Shown here: piece by piece, positions 143-26,610 of the stretch
Layout: every line of letters begins with the position of its first letter
How positions within the stretch are numbered: position 1 is the stretch's first letter
NCBI RefSeq assembly: GCF_004010195.1
Contig: NC_057718.1
Location: 40,871,748-40,898,357, forward strand
Direction of reading: 5' to 3'
Origin: Chiloscyllium plagiosum
Lineage: Eukaryota
Length of the DNA stretch: 26,610 nucleotides
The notes under the pieces: model-generated
Databases searched by the model: none
Seen by the model: only the letters and a program-made list of their open reading frames with translations
Told to the model about the DNA's origin: nothing
Program-made: the position numbers and the translations under genes

Positions 143-898
143 TTTCTTAATTCATTCACCAGATGTCGGAGTCATTGGCTGGGCCAGCATTTATTCTCCA
201 TCTCTAGCTACCTCTGAGAAGGTGGCAGTGAACGGCTTTCTTGAAAGAGTGCAGCCCATTTGCTGTAGGTGAACACACAATGTGGTTGGGGGTTCCAGAA
301 TGTTGATACTGAAAATTTGGTGACATATTTCCAAGTCTAAGCAGCAAGTAGCTTGGAAGGGAATTTGCAGTTGGTGGTGTTTTCATGAATCTGCTACCCT
401 GGGCCTTCTAAATCATTGTGTTTGTGACTTTAGAAGGTGATGCCTGAGTATGCTTGATGAATTTCTGCACTGCATCTTTTAAGAGAGACACTGCTGTAAC
501 AGACTATCAGTGGCGAAAGACGGATTAAATGTTTGTGGATGTGGTGCCAATCAAATTGGTGGCATTGACCTGGATGGTGTCAAGCTCTCTGACCTTTGTT
601 GGAGCTGCATTCATCTGTATTCCATCACACTTATGACTTATGCCTTGTAGATGGAGGAGAGGTCTTGGGGAGTGAGGAGTTGAGTTACTCATTGCAAGAT
701 CCCTAGCTTTTGACCTTCTCTTGTAGTCACAGTATTTATGTGGCTAATACAGTTCAGTTTCTGGTCAATTGTAAACTCCAGGATGATAATTGTGAGTTAT
801 TCAGTGATGGTGAATTCACTGAGTGTTCAAGGGCAATGGCAAGATTCTCTTTTGTTGGAGATGGTCATTGCCTGGCATTTAGGTGGATTAATATTTGC
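143..898 (-). mobile_element. Decayed 3' fragment of the same LINE-like family as 8806-11703
   Basis: The reverse complement of 151-200 matches the family 3' tail (..ataaatgctggcccagccaatgac..gtgaatgaa; cf. 15060-15110 and 11645-11690). 640-880 is the reverse complement of the RT C-terminal region at 11370-11590. Confidence 0.8.
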
Positions 899-2878
899 CT
901 ATTTTCCTTCCATCCTATTTGGTTCCAATATCACATTTTTATAATTAGTTAGTTATAGCACAAATGAAATCAAACACAAAGTTTCCTCAATGCAATTTTG
1001 GTGTTGAACTTTTCTCAAAACAGGAAACCTTAAATAGGACAAGACGGGGTATACTTTGTCTACATTCGAATGTGTTTCTCGGTTAAAATTAACGCATTTA
1101 GTTTACAGAATGCTATCTTCTACTATGGAGCTGTGAATGAAGAAATTAAGAATAAATGTAATCTTCAGATAAAGTAGAATAGCAGGATATAGGAATAATT
1201 AACCAGACATGCCAAATAGGTAGTCTGGAGGCCTGAAGAAATAACCAAATGTAGGGTTACATTTAAGAGAATAGGAGAAAAAGTGAAAAACCTGATTGCA
1301 AGGACAATGCAGACAGTGATTTGATGGATTAGCACAAAACCTTCTGGGTTTATTCTTATTATAAAGGGCCATAAGAAATAAAATTGCCAGAAGTATTTTA
1401 TTACGTATGTAAACATTTATCATGAATCTCTTGTGACTTTGTTCATAGTTCGTTGGAGTACTTGTTATCATGTCCTAGTTGCTATAACATATTGAAGAAG
1501 GTTAAAGTTTACAGATTTTTAGCATTATGTCTTCTTATTAAAGTAATAGCACTATCAATAATGAATAGAATGATTTTAGCCATAAGAGCATTTTTTGTTA
1601 ACCTCAATGGACTAGATGTATAATATAACAACACATAATGCAAGAATTTTAATTTACCAAGCATCACAATTTTGATAATATCAACAGAAATGAAAGATTT
1701 TATTCATCTCTTCACACTCTAACTAGACTCACAACAAGATAGTTAATAAGTTAAAAACTAATTCAACGGTTCATTTTTTCTGCGGTATTTCTTCCTGAAA
1801 CAGAAAAATATCTGTTGAAATTCTGAAGTCTCCAAGAAACACCAGTTATAATTCTCCTGAAATAGTAACCTCCAACATAAGAATATTACAAAACTGTGCC
1901 AAAGCACAATAAACTTCATTTATAATTGCTTTTAAAACACAATGCAATTAAAGAAATCAAAGAAAAGTTCTCATGCACAGCAATTCAATGCTAGTAACAG
2001 TATTTTAAGCAACTTGTTATAAGGTAAATTACTGCACCTATTTAGTCACATGCTGGCAAAGCCGCCGGCAGTTAGTCATGATGGCGCCTTTTATGTATAT
2101 AAGTACCATGAGATTGGAAAAACTATGCAATTACACATTTTATGTGGTTGACCAATTGATTTTCCTTTTGAAATGACTATTCACAAAGGCTTGGTCAGTA
2201 ATTTACTTTTGTATGGAAAAATCCTGCAATTTGTCTGTCAATACCAAAATCCCTTCTGGTGAGTACTGTAACCATAATACCCTTGTTGACTTCAGCCAAT
2301 ATGTTTGATGACAAACATCCTTATCTGAGGATCTGGATAATGTTTCAGTGGAGCCCAATTTTAACACATTATTTTAATTCATTCTGTGACTGGTACAGTT
2401 TTACATAAGTCAGTCTCAAACTTCATACAGTTTGTCATCAGTTCCTTCAAACATAAAACAACACAAAAAAAACTTTCAGCTTTGTGAAACTATGTGAGTT
2501 TGTTTAGCTTGTTCAACATCAGTTAGTATCCAGCAAAGGCATTTCCTCAATACTGACAATCAGCAAACTTTATCGAAGATCCAGATAACTGCACATCATT
2601 TGTTTCCTTGCGAGGGTTCCTTTCTGACTTCATTCAGTAATACACTGCTTATACATATATAAAAAAACTACCTCAAATTGTATGGGCTCTTAAAGGGAAA
2701 CATCTTTTTATGTACAAGTATAGTCAATGATTTGTTACACATTCCAAAATATAACACAGATTTAATTGTGTAACTGACTCATTATCATCATGCTTTATGC
2801 TTGGAAACATGAGAATAGTTTATTTTAGTGGAAAACCATTAATTTAAACTTCAGAGAATGTGAGCGCTACCCAACCAT

Positions 2879-5800
2879 GGATATTCCTGGGAATACATCC
2901 AGAAAAGTTATTTGGTGGAACTGAGAACTAAGAAAGGGATGATCACCTTATTGGCATTGTACTATAAACTCCCTGAGTAGTCAGTAGGAAATTGAGAAAT
3001 ACATTTGTAAGGAGGACTCAGTTATCTGTAAGAATAATAGGGTGGTTATGGTAGGGGTTTTAACTTTCCAAACCTAGATTAGGAGTGCCATAGTATTAAG
3101 AGTTTGGATGGAGAGGAATTTGTTAAGTGTGTACAAGAAAAGTTTCTGATTCAGTATGTGGACGTACCTACTAGAGAAGGTGCAAAACTTGACCTACTCT
3201 TGGGAAATAAGGCAGGGCATGTGACTGAGGTGTCAGTGGGGGAGAACTTTGGGGTCAGCAACCATAATTCTATTTATTTTAAAATAGTGATGGAAAGGAT
3301 AGACTGGATCTAAAAGTTAAAGTTCTAAATTGGGGGAAGGCCAATTTTGACAGTATTAGGCAAGAACCTTCAAAAGTTGATTGGGGACGGATGTTTGCTG
3401 GTAAAGGGACAGCTGGAAAATGGAAGCTTTCAAAAATGAGATAACGAGTGTCCAGAGACAGTATGTCCCTGTTTGGGTGAAAAGCAAAACTGGAAAGTGT
3501 AGGGAATGCTGGAGGTCGAGAGACATTGAGGCTTTGGCTAGGAAAATGTAGGAAGCATATGTCAGGTGTGAACAGCAAAGCTCGAGTGAATCCTTGGACG
3601 AGTATAACGGTAGTACCAGGGAGATCAGAAGGGCAAAAAGGGGACATGAGATAGCTTTGGCAAACAGGGTTAAGGAGAATCCAAAGGGTCTTTATAAATA
3701 CCTTAAGGACAAAAGGCTAACTCGGGAGAGTTTAGGACCCCTCAAAGAGCAGAAGGCAGCCTACGTATGGAACCACAGGAGATGGGGGAAGATACTAAAC
3801 GAGTATTTTGCATCAGTATTTACTGTGGAGAAGAACACGGAAGATATAGAATGTGGGGAAATAGATGGTGACATCTTATTAAAGAGAAGGTGGTGCTGAA
3901 TGTCTTGAAATGCATAAAGGTGGATAAATCTCCAGGATTTGATCGAGTGTACCCTAGAACTCTGTGGGAAGCTTAAGGAAGTGATTGCTGGGCCCCTTGC
4001 TGAGACATTTGGACCATCGATAGTCACAGGTGAAGTGCTGGAAGACTGGAGGTTGGCTAACGTGGTGCCTATTTAGGAAAGGTGGTCAGGAAAAGCCAGG
4101 GAACTATACACCAATGAGCCTGACATTAGTTGGAGGGAAAGGATTTACATGCATTTGGATAGGCAAGCACTGATTATGGATAATCAATATGGCTTTGTGC
4201 TTGGGGAATCATACCTCACTAACTTGATTGATTTTTTGAAGAAGTAATAAAGAGGAGCAATGAGGGCAGAGCGGTGGACATAGTCTACATGGAATTCAGT
4301 AAGGCATTCGACAAGGTTCCTCATGGTAGAGTGATTAGCAAGGTTAGATCACATGGAATACAGGGAGAACTAGCCACTGGATACAGAACCTGCTCGAAGG
4401 TACAAGAGGGTGGTGTTGGAGGGGTGCTTTTAGACTGGAGGCCTGTGACCAGTGGTGTCCCACAGAGGTCAGTGCAGGGTCCAATGCTTTTAGTCATTTA
4501 TATAAATGATTTGGATGTGAACATTGGAGATATAGTTAGTAAGTTTGCAGTTGACACCGAAGTTCGAGGCATAGTGGACAGCAAAGAAGGTTACCTTAGA
4601 GTGCAACAGGACCTTCATCAGATGGGCCAATGGGCCAACGAGTGGCAGATGGAGTTTAATTTAGATAAATGTGAGGCACTGCATTTTGAAAAGGCAAATC
4701 AGGACAGGACTTATACACTTAGAGTCATAGAGATGTACAGCATGAAAACAGACCTTTCGGTCCAACCCGTCCATGCCGACCAGATACCCCAACCCAATCT
4801 AGTCCCACCTGCCAGCACCCAACCCATATCCCTCAAAACCCCTCCTATTCATATACCCATCCAAATGCCTTTTAAATGTTGCAATTGTACCAGCCTCCAC
4901 CACTTCCTCTGGCAGTTCATTCCATACACGTACCACCCTCTGTGTGAAAACTTTGCCCCTTAGGTCTCTTTTATATCTTTCCCCTCTCACCCTAAACCTA
5001 TGTCCTCTAGTTCTGGGCTCCCCGAACCCAGGGAAAAGACTTTGTCTATTTATCCTATCCATACCCATCATGATTTTGTAAACCTCTATGAGGTCACCCT
5101 CAACCTCCAACGCTCCAGGGAAAACAGCCCCAGCCTGTTCAGCTTCTCCCTATAGCTCAAATCCTCCAACCCTGGCAAAATCCTTATAAATCTTTTCTGA
5201 ACCCTTTCAAGTTTCACAACATCTTTCCAATAGGACGGAGACCAGAATTGCACACAATATTCCAACAGAGGCCTAACCAATTAATGGTAAGGTCCTGGGG
5301 ACTGTTGCTGAACAAAGAGACCATGGAGTGCAGGTTCATAGTTTTTGAAAGTAGAGACGCAGATAGATAGAATAGTGAAGGTGGCATTTGGTGTGCTTTC
5401 TTCTTTAGTCAGAGTGTTGAGTATAGGAGTTGCGAGGTCATAGTGCAGCTGTACAGGACATTGGTTCGGCCACTTTTGGAATATTGTGTTCAATTCTGGA
5501 CTCCCTCCGAGAGGAACAATGTAGTGAAACTTGAAAGAGTTCAGTAAAGATTTACAAGTATGTTGCTAGGGCTGGAGAGTCTAAGCTAATAGGGAGAGGG
5601 TGAATTGTCTAGGGCTGATTTCCCTGGAGCATCGGCGGCTGAGGAGTGACTTAACAGAGGTTTATAAAATTGTGAGAGACATGGACAAGGTAAGTAGACA
5701 AGGTCTTTTCTCTTGGGTGGGGAGTCCAGAACTAGAGGGCGTAGATTTATGGAGAAACAGGGAAGATTTAAAAGGGATCTAAGGGGCAAGTTCTTCATGC

Positions 5801-6020
5801 AAAGGGTGGTGCATGTATGGAATGAGCTGCCAGAGGAAATGGTGGAGACTAGTACAATTACAACATTTAAAAGGCATTTGGATGGGTATGAATAGGAAGG
5901 GTTTAGAGGGATATGGACCAAGTGCTGGCAAATGGGACTTGATTAGGTTAAGATATCTGGTCGGCATGGACGAGTTGGACTGAAGGATCTGTTTCTGTGC
6001 TGTACATCGCTATGACTATG
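2879..6020 (+). mobile_element. 5'-truncated, frameshifted CR1-clade LINE ORF2 (partial endonuclease + RT) with 3' UTR
   Basis: Fragments PTREGAKLDLLLGN (APE C-terminus), LNEYFASVFT, DIVYMEFSKAFDKVPH, VTSGVPQRSVQGP, SKFAVDT (FADD-like) and FFMQRVVHVWNELP. Ends in a ctatgactatg tail. Many stops and frameshifts. Confidence 0.92.
4722..5280 (-). mobile_element. Second CR1 3'-end copy inserted antisense inside the CR1 above
   Basis: Minus-strand ORFs LVRPLLEYCVQFWSP and FTQRVVRVWNELP plus a tail. The host reads through ..tatacactta|atggtaagg.. across the insertion, with tta at 4719-4721 and 5281-5283. Confidence 0.9.
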
Positions 6021-8805: not shown

Positions 8806-11703
8806 GGGAAGGTGATGGCCTAGTGGTATTATCACTAGACTATTAATCCAGAAATTCAGCTCATGTTCTGGGTTTGAATCCGACCATGGCGGATGGTGGA
8901 ATTTGAATTCAGTAGTAAAAAAATCTGGATTTGAGAATCTACTGCTGACTATGAAATCATTGTCAATTGTTGGAAAAACCCATCTGGTTCATTAATGCCC
9001 TTCAGGGAAGGAAGTCTCACTTGCTCTGGCCTACATGTGACTTCAGAGACACAGCAATGTGGTTGACTCTCAATTGTCCTCTGAAATGACAAAGGGCTTT
9101 TGCCTGAAATGTCGATTTTCCTGCTCCTCGGATGCTGCCTGACCAGCTGTGTTTTCCCAGCACCACACTTGACTCTAATCTCCAGCATCTGCAGTATTCA
9201 CTTCCGCCTGCCCTCTGAAATGGTGTAGCAAGCTATTCAGTTGTACCAATCGCTATAAAGTCTCAAAGAAATGAAACTGGATGGATCAGCTGGCATTTAC
9301 CTAGGCACCAGAAAAGATCTTGGCAGAAACAACCCTGTTGACGCTGCAAAGAACTCTTTACTAACATCTAGGGACTAGTTAGGAGAGCTGTCTCACAGAT
9401 TTGTCAAGCAACAACCTGACATGGTCATACTTACAGAATCACACCTAACAATGTCTCAGACACCTCCATTACCATCCCTGGATATGTCCTTTCCCAACTG
9501 CAGGACAGACCCAGAAGTGGCAGCACAGTTGGGAGGGAGTTGCCTTGGGAGTCCTCAACATTGACTCCAGATTCCATGAAGTGTTGTGCCTTCAGATTCA
9601 ACATGGGCAAAGAAACCTTTCACTGATTACCATGTACCATCCTCCCTCAGGTGGTGAATCGGTTCTCGTCTACATTGAACAACACTTGTAGAAAGTGCTG
9701 AGGATGACAAGGGTACAAAATGTAATCTGGTGGGAGATTTCAACATCCACCACCAAGAGTGGCTCAGCAGCAGTACTACTGATGGATCTGGTCTGGTCCT
9801 AAAGGACATACCTGTTAGACTGGATCTGTAGCAGGGTTGAGGAAACCAACAAGAGGGATAAACATACTTGACTTTAACCTTACCAACCTACCAATGGCAG
9901 ATGCATCTGTCCATGACAGAATCAGTAAGAGCCACCACGAGATAGACTTTGTGGAGACAAAGTCCCGCCTTCACATTGAGAATAACCTCCATCGTGTTGT
10001 GTGGCACTATCACTGTGCTAAATGGGACAGACCTTGAACAGATGTAGCAGTTCAAGACTGGGCATCCATGAGGCGCTATGTATCATCAACAGCAGCAGGA
10101 TTATACTCCAGCACAATCTGTAACTTCATGGCTCGGCATATTCCCCCATTCAACCATTACCATCATGCCAGGGGACTAATCCTGGTTTAATGGATAGTAT
10201 GGGAAGGCATGCCAGCAGCAGCACCAGGCATACCTGAGGATGAGATGTCACCTGGTGAAGCCATCAAACAAGACTACTTGCATGCCAAACAGCATAAGCA
10301 GTAAGTGATAGACAGAGCTAAATGATCCCACAATCAACGGACCAGATCTAAGCTCTGCAGTCCTGCCACATCCAATCATGAATGGTGGCAGTTGGCTAAA
10401 CAATGCACTGAAGGAGGCGGCTCCACAAAAATCCCCATCCTCAATGATGGAAGAGCCAGGCACATCAGAGCAAAAGATAAGGCTGAAGCTTTTGCAGCAA
10501 TCTTAAACCAGAAGTGCCGAGTGGAAGATCCATCTCAGCCTCCTCCAATGGTCCCCAGCAATACAGATACCAGTCTTCAGGCAATTTGATTCACTCAAGA
10601 AATGGTTGGAGACACTGGATACTGCAAAGGCTAAGGGCCCTGACAACTTTCCGGCAATAGTACTGAAGACTTGTGCTTGTCGTTCCCCTAGCTAAGCTGT
10701 TCCAGTTCAGTTGTAACATGGGCATCTACCTGACAATGTAGAAAATTGTCTGAGTATGTCCTGTACATAAAAGGCAGGAAAAGTCCAACCTGACTAAGTA
10801 GTGTCCCTTCAGAGTACTGTTGATCATCAATAAAGTGATGGAAGGAGTCATCAAAATTGCTATCAAACAGCACCTGCTCAGCAATAAATGCAAAATTTGG
10901 GTTTCACCAGAGCCATTGAGCTCCTGACCACATTGCAGCCTTGGTTCAAACATGGACAAAAGAGCTGAATTCCAGAGGTGAGGGAGAATGACACCCCGTC
11001 ACATCAAGGCTGCATTTGACCGAGTGTGGCATCAATGAGCCCTAGCAAAACTGGAATCAATGGCTGTCAGAGGCAAACTGTCAGGTGTCTGGAGTCATAC
11101 CTAACACATAGTGAGATTGTTGTGGTTGGTGGAGGGTCAATCATCTCAGCTCCAGGACATCTCTGCAGAAGTTCCTCAGATTTGTGTGTTAGACCCAACA
11201 ATTTCCAGCTGCTTCATCAATGACCTTTCCTCCAACATAAGATCAAAAGTGGGGATGATTGCACAATGTTCAGCATCCTTCGAGACTTATCAAATACTGA
11301 GCAATCCACATTCAAATGAAACAAGATCCGGACAACTTGGGCTGACAAATGGAAAGTAACATTTGCGCCACACAAATGACCAGGCAATGACCATCAGAGA
11401 CAACCTAACTACTACCTCATGACCTTCAATGGTGTTACCATTATCAACATCCTGGGGCTATCATTGACTAGAAATTCAACTGGAGTCACCATATAAACAC
11501 ATACAAAAGCATGTCAGAGGCTAGAAATACTGTGCTGAGTAATTCATCTCCTGACTCCCCAAAGCTTGCCCACCAACTACAAGGCATCTGCAGTGGTTCA
11601 AGAAGGCAGCTCACCATCACCTTCTCAAGGGCAAAGATGGATGGGCAATAAGTGCTGGCTAGCCAGTGACACCCATACCACACACAAGAGAATTTTAAAA
11701 AAA
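8806..11703 (+). mobile_element. tRNA/SINE-headed LINE-like retroelement (APE endonuclease + RT, CR1-group-like, no ORF1), inactivated copy
   Basis: A box TGGCCTAGTGG at 8816-8826 and B box GGTTTGAATCC at 8871-8881. APE remnants LSHRFVKQQPDMVILTES, VGDFNIHHQEWL and KPTRGINILD. RT remnants GPDNFPAIVLK, IKAAFDRVWHQ, EVPQICVLDPTISSCFINDL. 3' tail and A-run at 11640-11703. The FADD motif appears deleted near 11255. Confidence 0.85.
9089..9208 (+). mobile_element. Penelope-like terminal-repeat fragment (family A) inserted with a target-site duplication
   Basis: Flanked by tgtcctctgaaatg (9075-9088) and tgccctctgaaatg (9209-9222). Homologous to 18343-18427 and 18886-18990. Carries only the 3' part of the hammerhead motif. 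Confidence 0.8.
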
Positions 11704-13201: not shown

Positions 13202-14799
13202 CTGAAAAATTGAAAATAAAAATGTTAAAAGCACAAAGCAAATGTAGGACAGTAAAGGAGCAAGAATCACTACCTGAATTGAAGACTTCAAAAATAATGC
13301 AAAGCATGAAAAAGTTAAACTGGCTATGTTTTACATATCAGTATGAATACATAAATATAATTCTTTAAAAAGGTGACTTTTGTGCTTACTTGAGCAGTAT
13401 TATAAACATATTAACCTTGAAACCAACTAATTATCTTGGTTGTGTTGAATCTATGAATGTAAATTAGCCTGTTGTTGAGAACCAACTGTCTCCTGTTCCC
13501 TGTCTCCTGTTGCAAGGAAGAGAGTCTGAAAAAGAGCTCAGAGCCAAAATGCGAGGCAAGCAACTGCGATAATGTAGGAGGGTGGCAACTGAAGTGGTGG
13601 TTAGGTTGACCATAGGAAAGTGAGTGGGGAACGACATGGGTGTGAGTGGATGAGCAACTGGATGGTGAGCGGGCTAAGGGGGCAGGAGGTGGAGCAGAAG
13701 AGCAATAGGAAGGAGTGTCAGTGAGCACCAGGAGGCATGTGGGTGAGTGAGTGAGTGACGTGATAGCAGGCGAGCAAGCATCAGTGGGGGTAAATGAGAG
13801 TTGCAATAAGCGATGTGGCACTGGTAAATGACTGGGACTGAATGCACAACAGCAGTTAGGCTGAAAACATTCTGGGCAGTGTCCCCTCTATGCTGAGTGC
13901 CTGTTGGAAAGCACTGCACACATTAACTGGCACGTCAATGGTTGGGAGGTTGCCACTCATTTACCTTGGAGGTCTCTGGACAGGAAAAATTACAGGGAGC
14001 AGTGGGGGAATGAAGGAGGCAAGAGACAATGGAGGAATAAGTGATGGGGCAAACAACGGAAGGGCAAGCAATGGGTGGAGAACGAGAGATAGAGATGAGT
14101 GATTTGAGGCAAATGAGCAAAGGACTCAGAGTGATGGCTAACAAGCAGATGGGTGGGATTGCAACTGAGGTGCTAAAGTTGGGGAGGGACCAGGGGTTGA
14201 GAAAGCGAATCTTAGGGAGGGCAAATGTGAGGAAAGAGGAGTAGACACAGCACGAGATGAATAGATGTGAGGTAAAGTAGTGGTGAGTGCTGAGGGTGGG
14301 GTGGGAACGAAAGAATCATGAGGGAATTGAATTAGAGAGTATGGAAAATGGGAGTGTTACAGATGGTAATAGTGAAGTAGGCTTCCTCCTCTTTATCATT
14401 CCAATTTCTCCATAATCAAATTTGTAAAGCATACAAAGTCGCTGAAGGAAAAGGGTAGAAATGGAAGGATTCTGGGAGGTAAACCAACTTCCATCTAAAA
14501 AGACTGAGTCCATGTATTTGAAGAAACAAAAAATGAAAGAGAGACCAAGCCAGATTAGAACTGAAGAGAATCAGACGTATAGAGTATATAACCCACAATT
14601 CACTGGGAGAAATGCATGGGAATCCAACAGTATTTTTAAATAAGCATTTCTATAGCATTTCGATATCAGAAAACACCAACAAGTTGAATATTTATACTCA
14701 AAATAACTGTTGAAGGAAGGGATCAAGAAACAGTCTGATAATCTTGTGAATTTATTGTGATTCAGATAAGACAAAACAGCATTTATAACTCAATCTCCG

Positions 14800-15122
14800 A
14801 GTGGTATTATCATTGGACTGTTAATCCAGAGACCCAGGAAATGTTCTGGGGACTGAGTTTGAATCCTGCCAAGGCAGATGGTGGAATTTGAGTTCAACAA
14901 ATATCTGGAATTAAGAGTTTAACGATGTCCCTGAATCCATTGTTGATTGTCGGGGAAAAAAACAATCTGGTTCATTAATGTCCTTTAGGGAAGGAAACTG
15001 CCATCCTTACTTGGTCTGGTCTACATGTGGTTGACTCTTAATTGCCCAATTAGGGATGGACAATAAATGCTGGCCTAGCCAGTGACACCCTCATCCCGTG
15101 AATGAATAAATTAAAAAAAAAA
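14800..15122 (+). mobile_element. tRNA-derived SINE sharing head/core and 3' tail with the 8806-11703 element
   Basis: 14800-15047 aligns with 8822-9080 (B box AGTTTGAATCC at 14856-14866; core ctggttcattaatgtcctttagggaaggaa). 15050-15110 aligns with 11630-11690. Ends in an A-tail. Confidence 0.88.
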
Positions 15123-16890: not shown

Positions 16891-18254
16891 TGAAATGTGA
16901 CCTATGTTGCCTTTTATCTTTATCTGAAAGACAAATGTGAAGTTGAAATGGAAAATGGCTGTAGCCACATCCAGAGTGGGTGAACAGTGTTTTGTCTACC
17001 TGATCATGTAGGATCTACTTGTCAGTGATGAGATGCCCTTCGAGGGGGCAACTATATCAACTAGACACTTTCACAGTACAGGCTGCAGACATCTGCAATC
17101 ATAGTACCTTGAGTGTGAAATGCATGCAGGACCCAAATATTTGCATACAAATCCTGCTCTCAAGCAGGATCTCACTTGTCAATACAAATTGGTCATAGTC
17201 ATCGCTGTGAAGCAGCATCAATCACAAGTGAACTTAAAAAAAGGGTGACCTGAAGGCCACAATTCACAAAGACAATCCAAGGTTTCAAAGTTTAGGGCAT
17301 GGAACTGATTTCCTCTAGCCTTGAATTTGAAGTTATCTCAAACATGCTTGGAGGCAATGCTGCTTTTCTTGGGTGAGGTGGGGATGGGGGTGAGGTTGAT
17401 GAGGTGGGGTTGAGGGGTGAGGTTTGTGAGAAGTGAGTTGAGGCTTTTTAGTGGGAGGCCGGAGTAAAGTGTCAGTAGTCCTACTGTACTTACAATTAGC
17501 TATGGTCTGTGCAGCATGCATCAAATAAGGTCCACTACGTCAAAAGTGCATGAAGAGATCATCCTTGGCAGAGTCCTCCAAGACCCACTGTATGGATGAC
17601 TGCGTGAAGCCCTCTTTTGTGTGTGAAGCAAATGCTGTCAATGTTATTAAGAACATATTTTGATTCCAATATTCCCCACACAGGTTCATTGAAGCATGAC
17701 CAACACAGGATCCAGCCACAGCAGTGATAATTGCAGCGATGGTCATGGTGCAACAAAGGTATAGAGAAATCAAGGAGGATCAGATGCGCCAACAAGTCCA
17801 GGATCAGCAGCAACTTGCAGCGGCTGACAAACTGACTGCACATCATGAGGTCACAGCTTCAGATCCCCTTCGGATGTGGAGGGAGTATAGAAGACTGAGT
17901 GTTTATTATCCTCAATGCCTTTTCCTCCAGATAAACTAGGCACATTGCCACCTCAGTCTGAAAATCTCCCGGGACACCATCTGAAAACTGTGCCATTTGT
18001 TGAATCAGGACTAGCAACTTGAAGGGGTTAGTGGCCATCAAGGTTATGGCTGCGTTAAATTTTAATGCAACAGGTTGCTTCCAAGGATTCACTGGGGACC
18101 TATGTAGGATCTCTCAATCCTCAAATATATCAAGGCTCCTATTGATTCAATTTGTGACAATTCACACCACTTTATAATGTTTCACCATGACACGATCGGT
18201 GCTGCAACCTGGGCTTTAAGCTTTGACGACATAGCTGGCTTCCCTTATATGTTG

Positions 18255-18427
18255 AGGAGAAAGTGAGGTCTGCAGATGCTGGAGATCAGAGCTGGAAATG
18301 TGTTGCTGGAAAAGCGCAGCAGGTCAGGCAGCATCCTGAAGAAGGGCTTATGCCCGAAACGTCGATTCTCCTGTTCCCTGGATGCTGCCTGACCTGCTGC
18401 GCTTTTCCAGCAACACATTTCCAGCTC
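18255..18427. mobile_element. 173-bp Penelope-like (family A) inverted-repeat insertion with a 16-bp TSD
   Basis: TSD cttcccttatatgttg at 18239-18254 and 18428-18443. Perfect 48-bp inverted arms at 18289-18336 and 18380-18427. Confidence 0.88.
18333..18366 (+). ncRNA. Minimal type I hammerhead ribozyme motif
   Basis: AUC-CUGAAGA-A-GGGC(UUAU)GCCC-GAAA-CG-UC/GAU. Complete catalytic core, 4-bp stem II, palindromic ACGU stem III, 3-bp stem I, and GUC cleavage triplet ending at 18363. Confidence 0.75.
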
Positions 18428-18480
18428 CTTCCCTTATATGTTGCCTTGACAGTGTCATATCATATCATAGCTGACTACAT

Positions 18481-18994
18481 CAGCAGTTGAAAGTGTGTTG
18501 CTGGGAAAGCACAGGAGGTCAGGCAGCATCAGAGTGGGCGGCACGGTGGCCCAGTGGTTAGCACTGCTGCCTCACAGCGCCAGAGTCTGGGGTTCAATTC
18601 CCGCCTCAGGCGACTGACTGTGTGGAGTTTGCACGTTCTCCCCGTGTCTGCGTGGGTTTCCTCTGGGTACTCCGGTTTCCTCCCACAGTCCAAAGATGTG
18701 CAGGTCAGGTGAATTGGCCATACTAAATTACCCGTAGTGTTAGGTTAGGGGTATGAGTGGGTTGCGCTTTGGCGGGTCGGTGTGGACTTGTTGGGCCGAA
18801 GGGCCTGTTTCCACACTGTAATGTAATCTAATCTAAAAGTAGCCGGAGAATCGACGTTTTGGGTGTAAGCCCTTGATCAGGATTCCGAAATGTCGATTCT
18901 CTTGCTCCTCGGATGCTGCCTGACCTGTTGTGCTTTCCCAGCAATGCACTCCAGACTCTAATCTCCAGCATCTGCATTCCTCACTTTCTCCGAC
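18481..18994. mobile_element. Second family-A inverted-repeat insertion with a 10-bp TSD, hosting an HE1 SINE
   Basis: TSD ctgactacat at 18471-18480 and 18995-19004. The arm 18492-18534 + 18841-18882 is inverted relative to 18886-18950. Degenerate minus-strand hammerhead at ~18848-18882. Confidence 0.82.
18536..18835 (+). mobile_element. Full-length HE1-like (V-SINE type) tRNA-derived SINE with a CR1-derived tail
   Basis: A box TGGCCCAGTGG at 18547-18557 and B box GGTTCAATTCC at 18591-18601. V-domain-like ctgtgtggagtttgcacgttctccccgtgtctgcgtgggtttcctc. Tail ggtcggtgtggacttgttgggccgaagggcctgtttcc resembles the CR1 3' end at 5959-6000. Ends taatctaatct. CpGs are retained, suggesting a young copy. 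Confidence 0.9.
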
Positions 18995-19036
18995 CTGACT
19001 ACATTAGGAGAAAATGCTTCCATTCCACCAACACAG

Positions 19037-20430: not shown

Positions 20431-20490
20431 CCATCAACACACTCTTGACTCTGACCTCCAGCATCTGCAGTCCTCGTTTTCTCCACCTTG
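20431..20490 (+). mobile_element. Terminal fragment of the family-A Penelope-like repeat
   Basis: caacacactcttgactctgacctccagcatctgcagtcctcgttttctcc matches 9160-9205 and 18942-18991. Confidence 0.75.
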
Positions 20491-21078: not shown

Positions 21079-22436
21079 AATCATTCATGGTATGTGGATA
21101 TTACTAGCAAGGTGAAATTTCATTAGCCATCTCTAATGGTGCTGGGGAAAGCGAATATTGCCTTGTTGAACACAGCTGCCATTCACATAGTGAAGGGATT
21201 CTCAACAACTCTAGTGTTCAAGAAGTTTGACCAAATGACAATGGTGGAATTGTGACATGTTTCCAAGTTGGGGCAGTTTGCATTTCCCTGAGAAGAACAT
21301 GGAGGGAATGGTGTTCCCAAGTGCCCACAGGACTTGTCTTAGGGGTTAGAAGTTGCTGCCGAAGAAGCCATTTAATTTGTTGCAGTCTATACTTTAGATG
21401 CAGACATAATTCACCAATGGTTGAAACAGTGAATGTTGAAGGTGGTTACTGTGTACCTTTGAAGAGGGATGCTTTGTCTTAGATGGGGGTTGAGCTTCTT
21501 GTCTATTTTTGGAGTTGTACTCATCTAATCAAGTGGAAAGCATCCTGTCACACTCCTGACTTGTGCTTTGTCGAGAGTGAAAAAGCTTTGGGGAAATCAG
21601 GAACTCTTTATAAAATTAACAGCCTCTGATCTGGCTACGCAATGACAGGATTAACATGATTGGGCTAGCTAAGTTTATAGTCAATGGTGACACCTGAAAA
21701 TGTGGGTAGTTAGGGTTGCAGTAATGTCAAAGAGAGATAGTAAGATTGTCTTAGAGATGGTCATTACCTCGCACTTCTGTGGTATGAATACGACACTATT
21801 TACTAGACTAAGCCTAAATTTGGGGATAATCATGAGTGAGTTTGTTGTTAATACCTCACCCATGTTTCATTTTAATATTTTGGAGGCAATATTCAGTTCT
21901 GTGAAGGTTATTTTTGTAAAGATAGGATAATTAAAATTCTGGGCTTTAGTGATTACCAGGACACCTAAAGAAATTGCAGTTCAGAAAGTCTCACAACACA
22001 AATGATATGCCCTCAGTGTGAAGATGGGACTTTGTCTTGTCAGCTACTGTCGTGATTGAGAGTGTCTCTATGCCATGAGAATGCAATCAGGTGGGTTTTT
22101 CCTTCATTTTAGTTTTCTCACTACTTTTCACAAGTATAGTCTGAAAACTATGTTTGGGACTCAGCCAGCTGGGCAGTAGTGATGATGCCCAGTTACTCTT
22201 GTTGAGGACACTGAAGTTCCCAACCCTAAATGCATTCTGTCTCTTTGCTGTCCTCAGAATTTTGTCCAGGTAATTTGGTAAGTACAGATTCCTCACCCAT
22301 GTGAAGATTGTAAATAATGGTAAAGCAGGAAATTCCTTCAACCACTTGCTACCATGAGATATTAAGGGATCGGAATTAACACTGAGGAGCATCAGGCTAT
22401 CTTGGGTGCGCTATACATCACGGTACTGCCATTCCC
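21079..22436 (-). mobile_element. Old, internally deleted copy of the 8806-11703 family
   Basis: 3' tail at ~21080-21140, and the RT C-terminal region to ~21790 parallels 151-880. The APE remnant LDKILRTAKRQNAFRVGNFSV (ORF 22087-22392) corresponds to 9685-9745. Confidence 0.7.
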
Positions 22437-26387: not shown

Positions 26388-26610
26388 GTGGAGGTGCCAG
26401 TGTTGGACTAGAGTGGACAAGGTCAGAGTTGAGGTGTGGTGCTGTAAAAGCACAGCAGGTCAGGCATCATCCGAGGTGCAGGAGAATCAATGTTTCGGGC
26501 AAGAGCCCTTCATCAGGAATGAGGCTTGTGAGCCGAGGGGATGAAGAGATAAATGGGGAGGGGTTGGGGCTGGGGGGAGGAGGTAGCTGAGAGTGTGATA
26601 GATGAATGGA
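26388..26610 (-). mobile_element. Family-B head (26388-26426) joined to a family-A Penelope-like terminal repeat running off the window; hammerhead motif at 26485-26520
   Basis: 26388-26426 matches 6020-6058, and 26427-26518 matches the family-A arms. The minus strand reads AUUC-CUGAUGA-A-GGGC(UCUU)GCCC-GAAA-CAUU-GAUU. Confidence 0.75.

Follow-up and report, generated by a model that had tools for sequence, protein, structure and literature searches.

In the textbook division, LINEs are coding elements transcribed by Pol II and SINEs are non-coding elements transcribed by Pol III. The stretch of DNA analysed here (the window, 26,610 nucleotides of Chiloscyllium plagiosum) holds at 8806-11703 a LINE that opens with a SINE-type, tRNA-like head, and the question that it raises is which polymerase makes its RNA. 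It was originally predicted that the family is transcribed from end to end by Pol III, either as an autonomous LINE or as a "giant SINE" carrying a captured ORF2.

The window copy and its surroundings

The element is one decayed copy, 88% identical to the consensus, of a multi-copy 3.3-kb family. Its parts, and other sequences of the family in the window, are as follows:

143..886, minus strand: older, 5'-truncated copy (consensus 2520 to the end, 73% identity)
8806..8891, plus strand: tRNA-like head (consensus 1-94), beginning sharply 10 nt upstream of the A box
8816..8826, plus strand: A box TGGCCTAGTGG, read from the sequence
8871..8881, plus strand: B box, GGTTTGAATCC in this copy through CpG decay of GGTTCGAATCC
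8892..9242, plus strand: conserved core (consensus 95-317), common to the short SINE forms and split here by an insert
9089..9208, no strand assigned: later insertion of another repeat, foreign to the family (120 nt, target duplication of roughly 13 bp on its flanks)
9271..9376, plus strand: AUG conserved at consensus 346, preceded by an A-rich leader, and the 35-codon frame that it opens, in -1 overlap with the APE frame
9354..9935, plus strand: APE endonuclease remnant (motifs at 9354-9930; Pfam PF14529 on sister copy L071)
10796..11586, plus strand: reverse transcriptase (RT) remnant and start of the C-terminal region (RT motifs at 10796-11253; PF00078 on sister copy L121)
11588..11703, plus strand: end of the ORF, short 3' UTR common with SINEs, A tail
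14791..15121, plus strand: companion SINE, LINE 1-292 joined to LINE 3218-end (a family of 30 loci)
21462..22257, minus strand: weak similarity to the family in two short stretches, 21462-21602 and 22087-22257 (68-77%)

Both boxes lie where they had been predicted, the insert is real, and the mapped motifs bear out APE remnants from about 9350 with RT remnants farther 3'. The initial reading overlooked a deletion of about 410 nt of the ORF at 11586/11588. Of the two related copies that it listed, the one near the start of the window is a 3' fragment of the family, but the other, given as 21079-22436, matches in the two short patches only.

No tRNA is called in the window by ARAGORN (default settings) or Rfam, and the family consensus yields an ARAGORN cloverleaf, at 7-94, solely with the relaxed threshold -ps90. 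At E<=1, Rfam finds no ribozyme (HDV-like, as at the 5' end of R2, RTE, and Ingi LINEs) in the window or in three copies with full heads, where decay may hide some, and on seven family loci it gives chance miRNA-type matches only. Such chance matches also arise from a near-palindromic pair (18289-18427) of the short repeat that is inserted at 9089-9208. This repeat, which we presume resembles a Penelope-type terminal repeat, recurs in the window at 18239-18534, 18845-18996, 20431-20488, and 26420-26518, and it is found inside many family copies as well.

The head-ORF junction and the identity of the family

A query spanning the join between core and APE gave a nearly whole-length match in 40 of 40 scored hits (the window included; 3,699 first-look candidates). 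A second set of loci was chosen on the APE body alone, so that the choice was independent of the join; 20 of these 29 extend in register to the head or core, 13 of them to the tRNA part (in three of the 13, the head is joined at an internal position), and the remaining nine begin downstream, with upstream sequences unrelated to one another. When loci were selected on the head, 22 of 28 ran on into the LINE body. The family has a sharply defined 5' end 10 nt ahead of the A box, beyond which the flanks are unrelated, and no other 5' end, other 5' UTR, or ORF1 was found in any family copy examined. The junction is consequently family-wide rather than specific to this locus. At two loci, L078 and L095, the 5' part including the head is inverted relative to the rest, like twin-priming inversions; L095, where the inverted head adjoins the body, is one of the nine that begin downstream. 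Another two, L079 and L080, share a contig, a 5' start, and a near-identical variant pattern, and are probably a segmental duplicate.

After removal of three duplicates, 120 copies were available. The 105 with at least 900 aligned nt form subfamily A (87 copies, 88% to consensus, heads in 43) and subfamily B (18 copies, 92%, heads in 9), and sub-clustering within A shows weak linkage only.

Whether the family is catalogued had been left undecided. By its likeness to published consensuses, it is the elasmobranch Zenon of the CR1 group and is already catalogued (PMC13343379, available in part). The comparison was made by eye on the first 400 nt of each consensus, leaving the ORF aside. All seven shark and ray consensuses of Supplementary Table 2 open with the head and core of the window copy and have no T4 (a run of four T) in these 400 nt, RhiTyp_Zenon-1 (3,293 nt) being the nearest, whereas two hagfish Zenons and one from coelacanth lack the head and have T4+ runs there. 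On this comparison the tRNA-like head is a trait of sharks and rays. In five of their species the A and B boxes conform to the Pol III consensus, except that the stingray B box is one base short; the A boxes vary at tolerated positions, and the dogfish B box is the variant AGTTCAAATCC. By eye, the core at about 170-320 of the consensus (window 8965-9245) is nearly invariant across stingray, dogfish, catshark, white shark, and whale shark, and is more conserved among them than the tRNA part. At consensus 204, 227, and 283 (window about 9004-9070), T-to-C changes leave subfamily A with shorter TT or TTT runs than the SINE and other sharks have, and the whale-shark consensus shares these changes.

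The catalogued elements (RhiTyp_Zenon-1, CarCar_Zenon-1, ScyCan_Zenon-1, SquAca_Zenon-1 to -3, and HypSab_Zenon-1) are, like the window family, single-ORF APE+RT elements with a poly-A tail; six of the seven consensuses measure 3.24-3.31 kb, the length of the window family, and one measures 2.89 kb. The family consensus likewise has a single APE+RT ORF and no ORF1, and short A-rich tails occur in 10 of 11 listed copies (L048 ends early). The family does not have the traits of a canonical CR1 of the HER1 type, since its protein shares only 27% identity with the canonical CR1 found in this genome, the esterase ORF1 is missing, and an A tail replaces the microsatellite tail. As for SINE2, the tRNA-derived head with both boxes is there, with a cloverleaf that is found only below the ARAGORN default threshold, but the LINE, at 3.3 kb and with a selected ORF, is neither short nor non-coding, as its short derivatives are. 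The predicted absence of ORF1 is thus real. However, every Zenon in PMC13343379, which draws on five elasmobranchs, lacks ORF1; absence is therefore a clade-wide trait and no evidence for Pol III.

In the available parts of PMC13343379, the text mentions neither tRNA nor Pol III, the supplement no tRNA, and the preprint neither tRNA nor a promoter; the head, the terminator loss, the out-of-frame AUG, and the derived SINEs discussed below are not described in those parts. A whale-shark preprint names CR1-Zenon once, without tRNA. No tRNA-headed autonomous LINE was found in the literature searched, which did not extend to Repbase, Dfam, most subscription journals, or bioRxiv supplements. The Pol III head of elasmobranch Zenon is apparently unreported.

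T runs on the sense strand and the case for Pol III

Near-absence of T4 from the window copy had been taken as a mark of Pol III. Outside the insert, this copy indeed has T4 runs at 10490 and 11693 alone, compared with 6.8 expected by base shuffle (P=0.024), while T3+ runs, in this decayed copy, number 23 against 28.5 expected (P=0.12). The full-length tests were made on the two subfamily consensuses of this one genome. On the sense strand of both, T4, T2VT3, T3VT2, TVT3, and T3VT are all at zero and T2VT2 occurs once, but the antisense strands hold 12 and 14 T4 runs. In vitro, human Pol III terminates at T4 and at the non-canonical T classes (PMC3141230, seen in part).

Against synonymous codon shuffles, the consensus has three T3+ runs where 10.7 are expected (P=0.001) and a single window with four T in five nt where 5.9 are expected (0 of 300 shuffles as low). 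For T4 by itself, zero compares with 1.5 (P about 0.18), or with 3.5 by base shuffle (P about 0.03). The prediction that T4 counts would fall below codon-shuffled controls and other LINEs therefore holds for T runs as a class but not, by codon shuffle, for T4 alone. In 69 natural copies there are 88 T4 runs compared with 293 expected. The observed/expected ratio of TTT is 0.17 in A and 0.22 in B, compared with 0.83-1.30 in controls (28 natural RT frames of 30 loci, four LINE groups) and 1.51 in a CR1 consensus. None of these five LINE groups, all from the same genome, is depleted of T runs, and 20 metagenome relatives (26-48% protein identity; most of them without a 5' end, and of unassigned clade) show neither depletion nor a B box. 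One of these, L218 (34% protein identity), has an in-frame AUG directly before its APE domain; its leader of roughly 620 nt (1-620) shows no ORF1 and no B box. At aligned positions, Phe numbers 161 in the family compared with 296 in 12 relatives, so that it is about halved.

The CR1 at 2879-6020, to which the element had been compared as rich in T4+, does have 15 such runs, but it contains a nested, inverted 3' fragment of a younger CR1 (4720-5281, 94% to consensus) and is thus an impure control. A clean control, the 30-copy consensus of that CR1 family, has 16.

Two of these observations count against a Pol III reading, namely that T4 alone reaches only P about 0.18 and that TTC is preferred over TTT in two low-T control groups as well (1/13 and 8/20). 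Furthermore, the strongest signal is TTT, and an isolated T3 is almost inactive as a human Pol III terminator (PMC3141230, in its available part), so the depletion exceeds what human Pol III would need. The excess loss may be due to mutational buffering or to a more sensitive Pol III in sharks.

Taken together, these sequence signatures, a junction that is family-wide and a loss of terminators, make it reasonably probable that the family is an autonomous, Pol III-transcribed, single-ORF Zenon LINE of sharks and rays; the predicted end-to-end Pol III transcription is then the best reading, founded on signatures of this kind only. In this model, the 5' UTR would consist wholly of the tRNA-derived SINE head and core. 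TFIIIC would bind the A and B boxes, and Pol III would start about 10 nt upstream of the A box, read 3.3 kb, and stop at the first flanking T run, as for Alu; each full-length insertion would bring its own promoter. The RNA, which would have no normal cap, would be translated from the AUG at consensus 346, a -1 shift or re-initiation would then be needed to enter the APE-RT frame, and the LINE protein would bind the 3' tail for target-primed reverse transcription and would move SINEs too. Pol III RNAs retrotranspose with ORF2p alone (PMC2666806, seen in part), and an ORF1-less LINE would therefore suit a Pol III head. On the other hand, the statement of Kojima that SINEs cannot encode protein and are limited in length by Pol III processivity (PMC5786205, seen in part) counts against a Pol III LINE. 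As for RNA, a raw single-cell poly(A) run searched at 85% likeness gives low depth on both strands and no pile-up at the start, and the contigs of three other runs cover all bins with no head-ORF bridge among the pieces listed; on a decayed, high-copy repeat such data carry no information.

Alternatively, the family might be a Pol II-transcribed Zenon that captured a SINE head by template switch and draws its promoter from the core or from flanking read-through, the T runs having been lost because they resemble U-rich decay or splice signals, because they would pair with the element's own poly(A) tail, or through a biased RT. We consider this unlikely, though it deserves to be taken seriously. 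LINEs are as a rule Pol II units, a capped RNA would ease translation, and the TTT loss does go beyond human Pol III needs. In addition, base composition differs among LINE clades, seemingly through selection that is independent of coding (10.1101/788562, seen in part). Yet other poly(A)-type and Zenon-like relatives have no such loss; here it is specific to one strand and includes precisely the non-canonical classes of terminator. Furthermore, the A and B boxes are kept across sharks and rays, and the LINE-specific sequence that separates the SINE-shared part from the AUG is only about 28 nt long.

Translation, selection, and derived SINEs

Pol III RNAs can be translated. How this one would be is less plain, because the APE domain has no AUG in frame ahead of it (Met first occurs at residue 170) and no significant fold is found in the 5' region (z -0.25 to -1.5), which weighs against the Pol III reading. 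The AUG at consensus 346 is nevertheless kept in most copies and in six of seven published consensuses, and the exact spacing of its frame to the APE frame in 35 of 54 copies. The stingray consensus has the same -1 overlap, and one dogfish consensus is in frame through deletions. In the AUG frame, the A/B differences of codons 11-12 are silent, and in the APE frame those of codons 19-31 (4/4); these are small numbers, with which the published Zenon sequences agree by eye. This silent-site pattern would point to a -1 shift or re-initiation.

These difficulties have a possible answer in a split cycle, in which Pol III makes the template for reverse transcription, whereas the protein is translated from capped read-through transcripts that Pol II makes from sister copies. 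Such a cycle would account for the terminator loss and the missing cap alike; ORF2p moves Pol III RNAs efficiently in trans (PMC2666806, in the part seen), and the two SINEs described below show that the LINE protein works in trans. However, a supply in trans should let broken masters amplify, and both consensuses keep an open frame with a dN/dS of 0.16, which fits action in cis better, so we regard the split cycle as improbable.

The evidence for that frame is as follows. A MAFFT majority consensus of 66 copies (3,249 nt, ending about 40 nt before the tail) has one APE+RT frame, and its three stops lie in columns mixed for T/C and then G/A, which marks CpG decay. Frameshifts in an earlier BLAST-pileup consensus, which might have meant a broken master, were due to deletions in its seed copy, and the MAFFT consensus is free of them. 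With CpG sites restored, subfamily A has an open frame of 976 codons with the catalytic motifs in place; the subfamily B consensus retains one stop, at a column of six T and six C. Shared non-CpG variants are distributed over codon positions 3/1/2 as 75/30/18, and singletons as 689/723/673. Between A and B, dN/dS is 0.16, and for 12 of the 87 A copies against their own consensus it is 0.51-0.77. The ORF of the window Zenon family is under purifying selection, and the family is autonomous, so that of the two predicted forms the autonomous LINE stands and the giant SINE is rejected. Indeed, a non-coding giant SINE with a dead captured ORF2, or a chance SINE beside a truncated LINE, is very improbable: although all natural copies found are broken (longest frame 543 aa among 141 scored candidates), all consensus stops are at CpG-decay sites, the third-position bias and dN/dS speak for selection, and a chance neighbour is ruled out by the identical junction genome-wide and the same head in five species.

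No intact or young copy was found among the 141 scored of 215,168 candidates; for whale shark and stingray, a small number of copies are listed whose ORF is intact. Open frames are long in other non-LTR families of the genome (L236-L265), exceeding 1,000 codons at several loci, and some of its LINEs are thus much younger than the window Zenon family. By their motifs these other families look L1- and Tx1-like. A protein collection gave no close full-length protein, which is a weak test; the family protein is 82-87% identical to proteins annotated in Heptranchias and Mobula. Several annotated shark proteins (P0004, P0005, P0013, P0026, P0041, P0051, P0053, and P0063) contain pieces of the family ORF and are either exonised copies or annotation errors.

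An autonomous Pol III LINE may be set beside several known systems. Persaeus, a SIDE of lepidopteran Zenon (PMC6740152, seen in part), is likewise a short, non-autonomous element in which the 5' end of a single-ORF Zenon is joined to its 3' end, but it has no tRNA homology or Pol III promoter, whereas here short form and LINE both carry one. Bipartite SINEs from RTE and Vingi (Bov-tA and SINE2-1_ACar; PMC5786205, in its available part) also combine a tRNA head, a LINE 5' part, and a LINE tail, with the head on the short non-coding form alone, unlike the autonomous coding element here. The shark tRNA SINEs (HE1/V-SINE with HER1; SacSINE1/Deu-SINE) have a type-2 Pol III head and a LINE-shared tail but, unlike the window LINE, are non-coding and share the tail alone with their LINE. 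TRIMp3 elements (Cassandra, Helenus, and Ajax; PMC10886601) are also non-SINE retrotransposons with a Pol III promoter, but they are LTR-type, under 1.3 kb, and non-coding. What is apparently new in this catalogued family is the Pol III head together with a strong, strand-specific, family-specific loss of terminators.

To the fuller claim we would give an even chance: that this is the first natural coding retrotransposon transcribed wholly by Pol III, a LINE retained in sharks and rays alike, with codons and amino acids shaped against terminators, uncapped RNA translated by way of a conserved out-of-frame AUG (through -1 recoding or re-initiation), and SINEs born by one-step internal deletion. 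If true, a self-sufficient Pol III LINE would break the division of polymerases between LINEs and SINEs, Pol III could make a 3-kb message in nature, and the family could serve as a model of cap-independent translation and would show how a SINE can arise from a LINE in one step.

Besides the companion SINE, a second short form joins LINE 317 to 3214 (17 of 18 exact pattern matches; 0 in the reversed control). It looks older than the 292/3218 SINE by a rough dating on a poor head consensus (58% mean identity). The LINE may have captured its head from a SINE, may have spawned the SINEs, or both; the 5' region of the family has no similarity to the upstream DNA of six metagenome relatives. In five single copies (L075, L077, L082, L141, and L142) the head or 5' part runs directly into an internal or 3' position, at differing breakpoints, and such joins are possible raw material for new SINEs.
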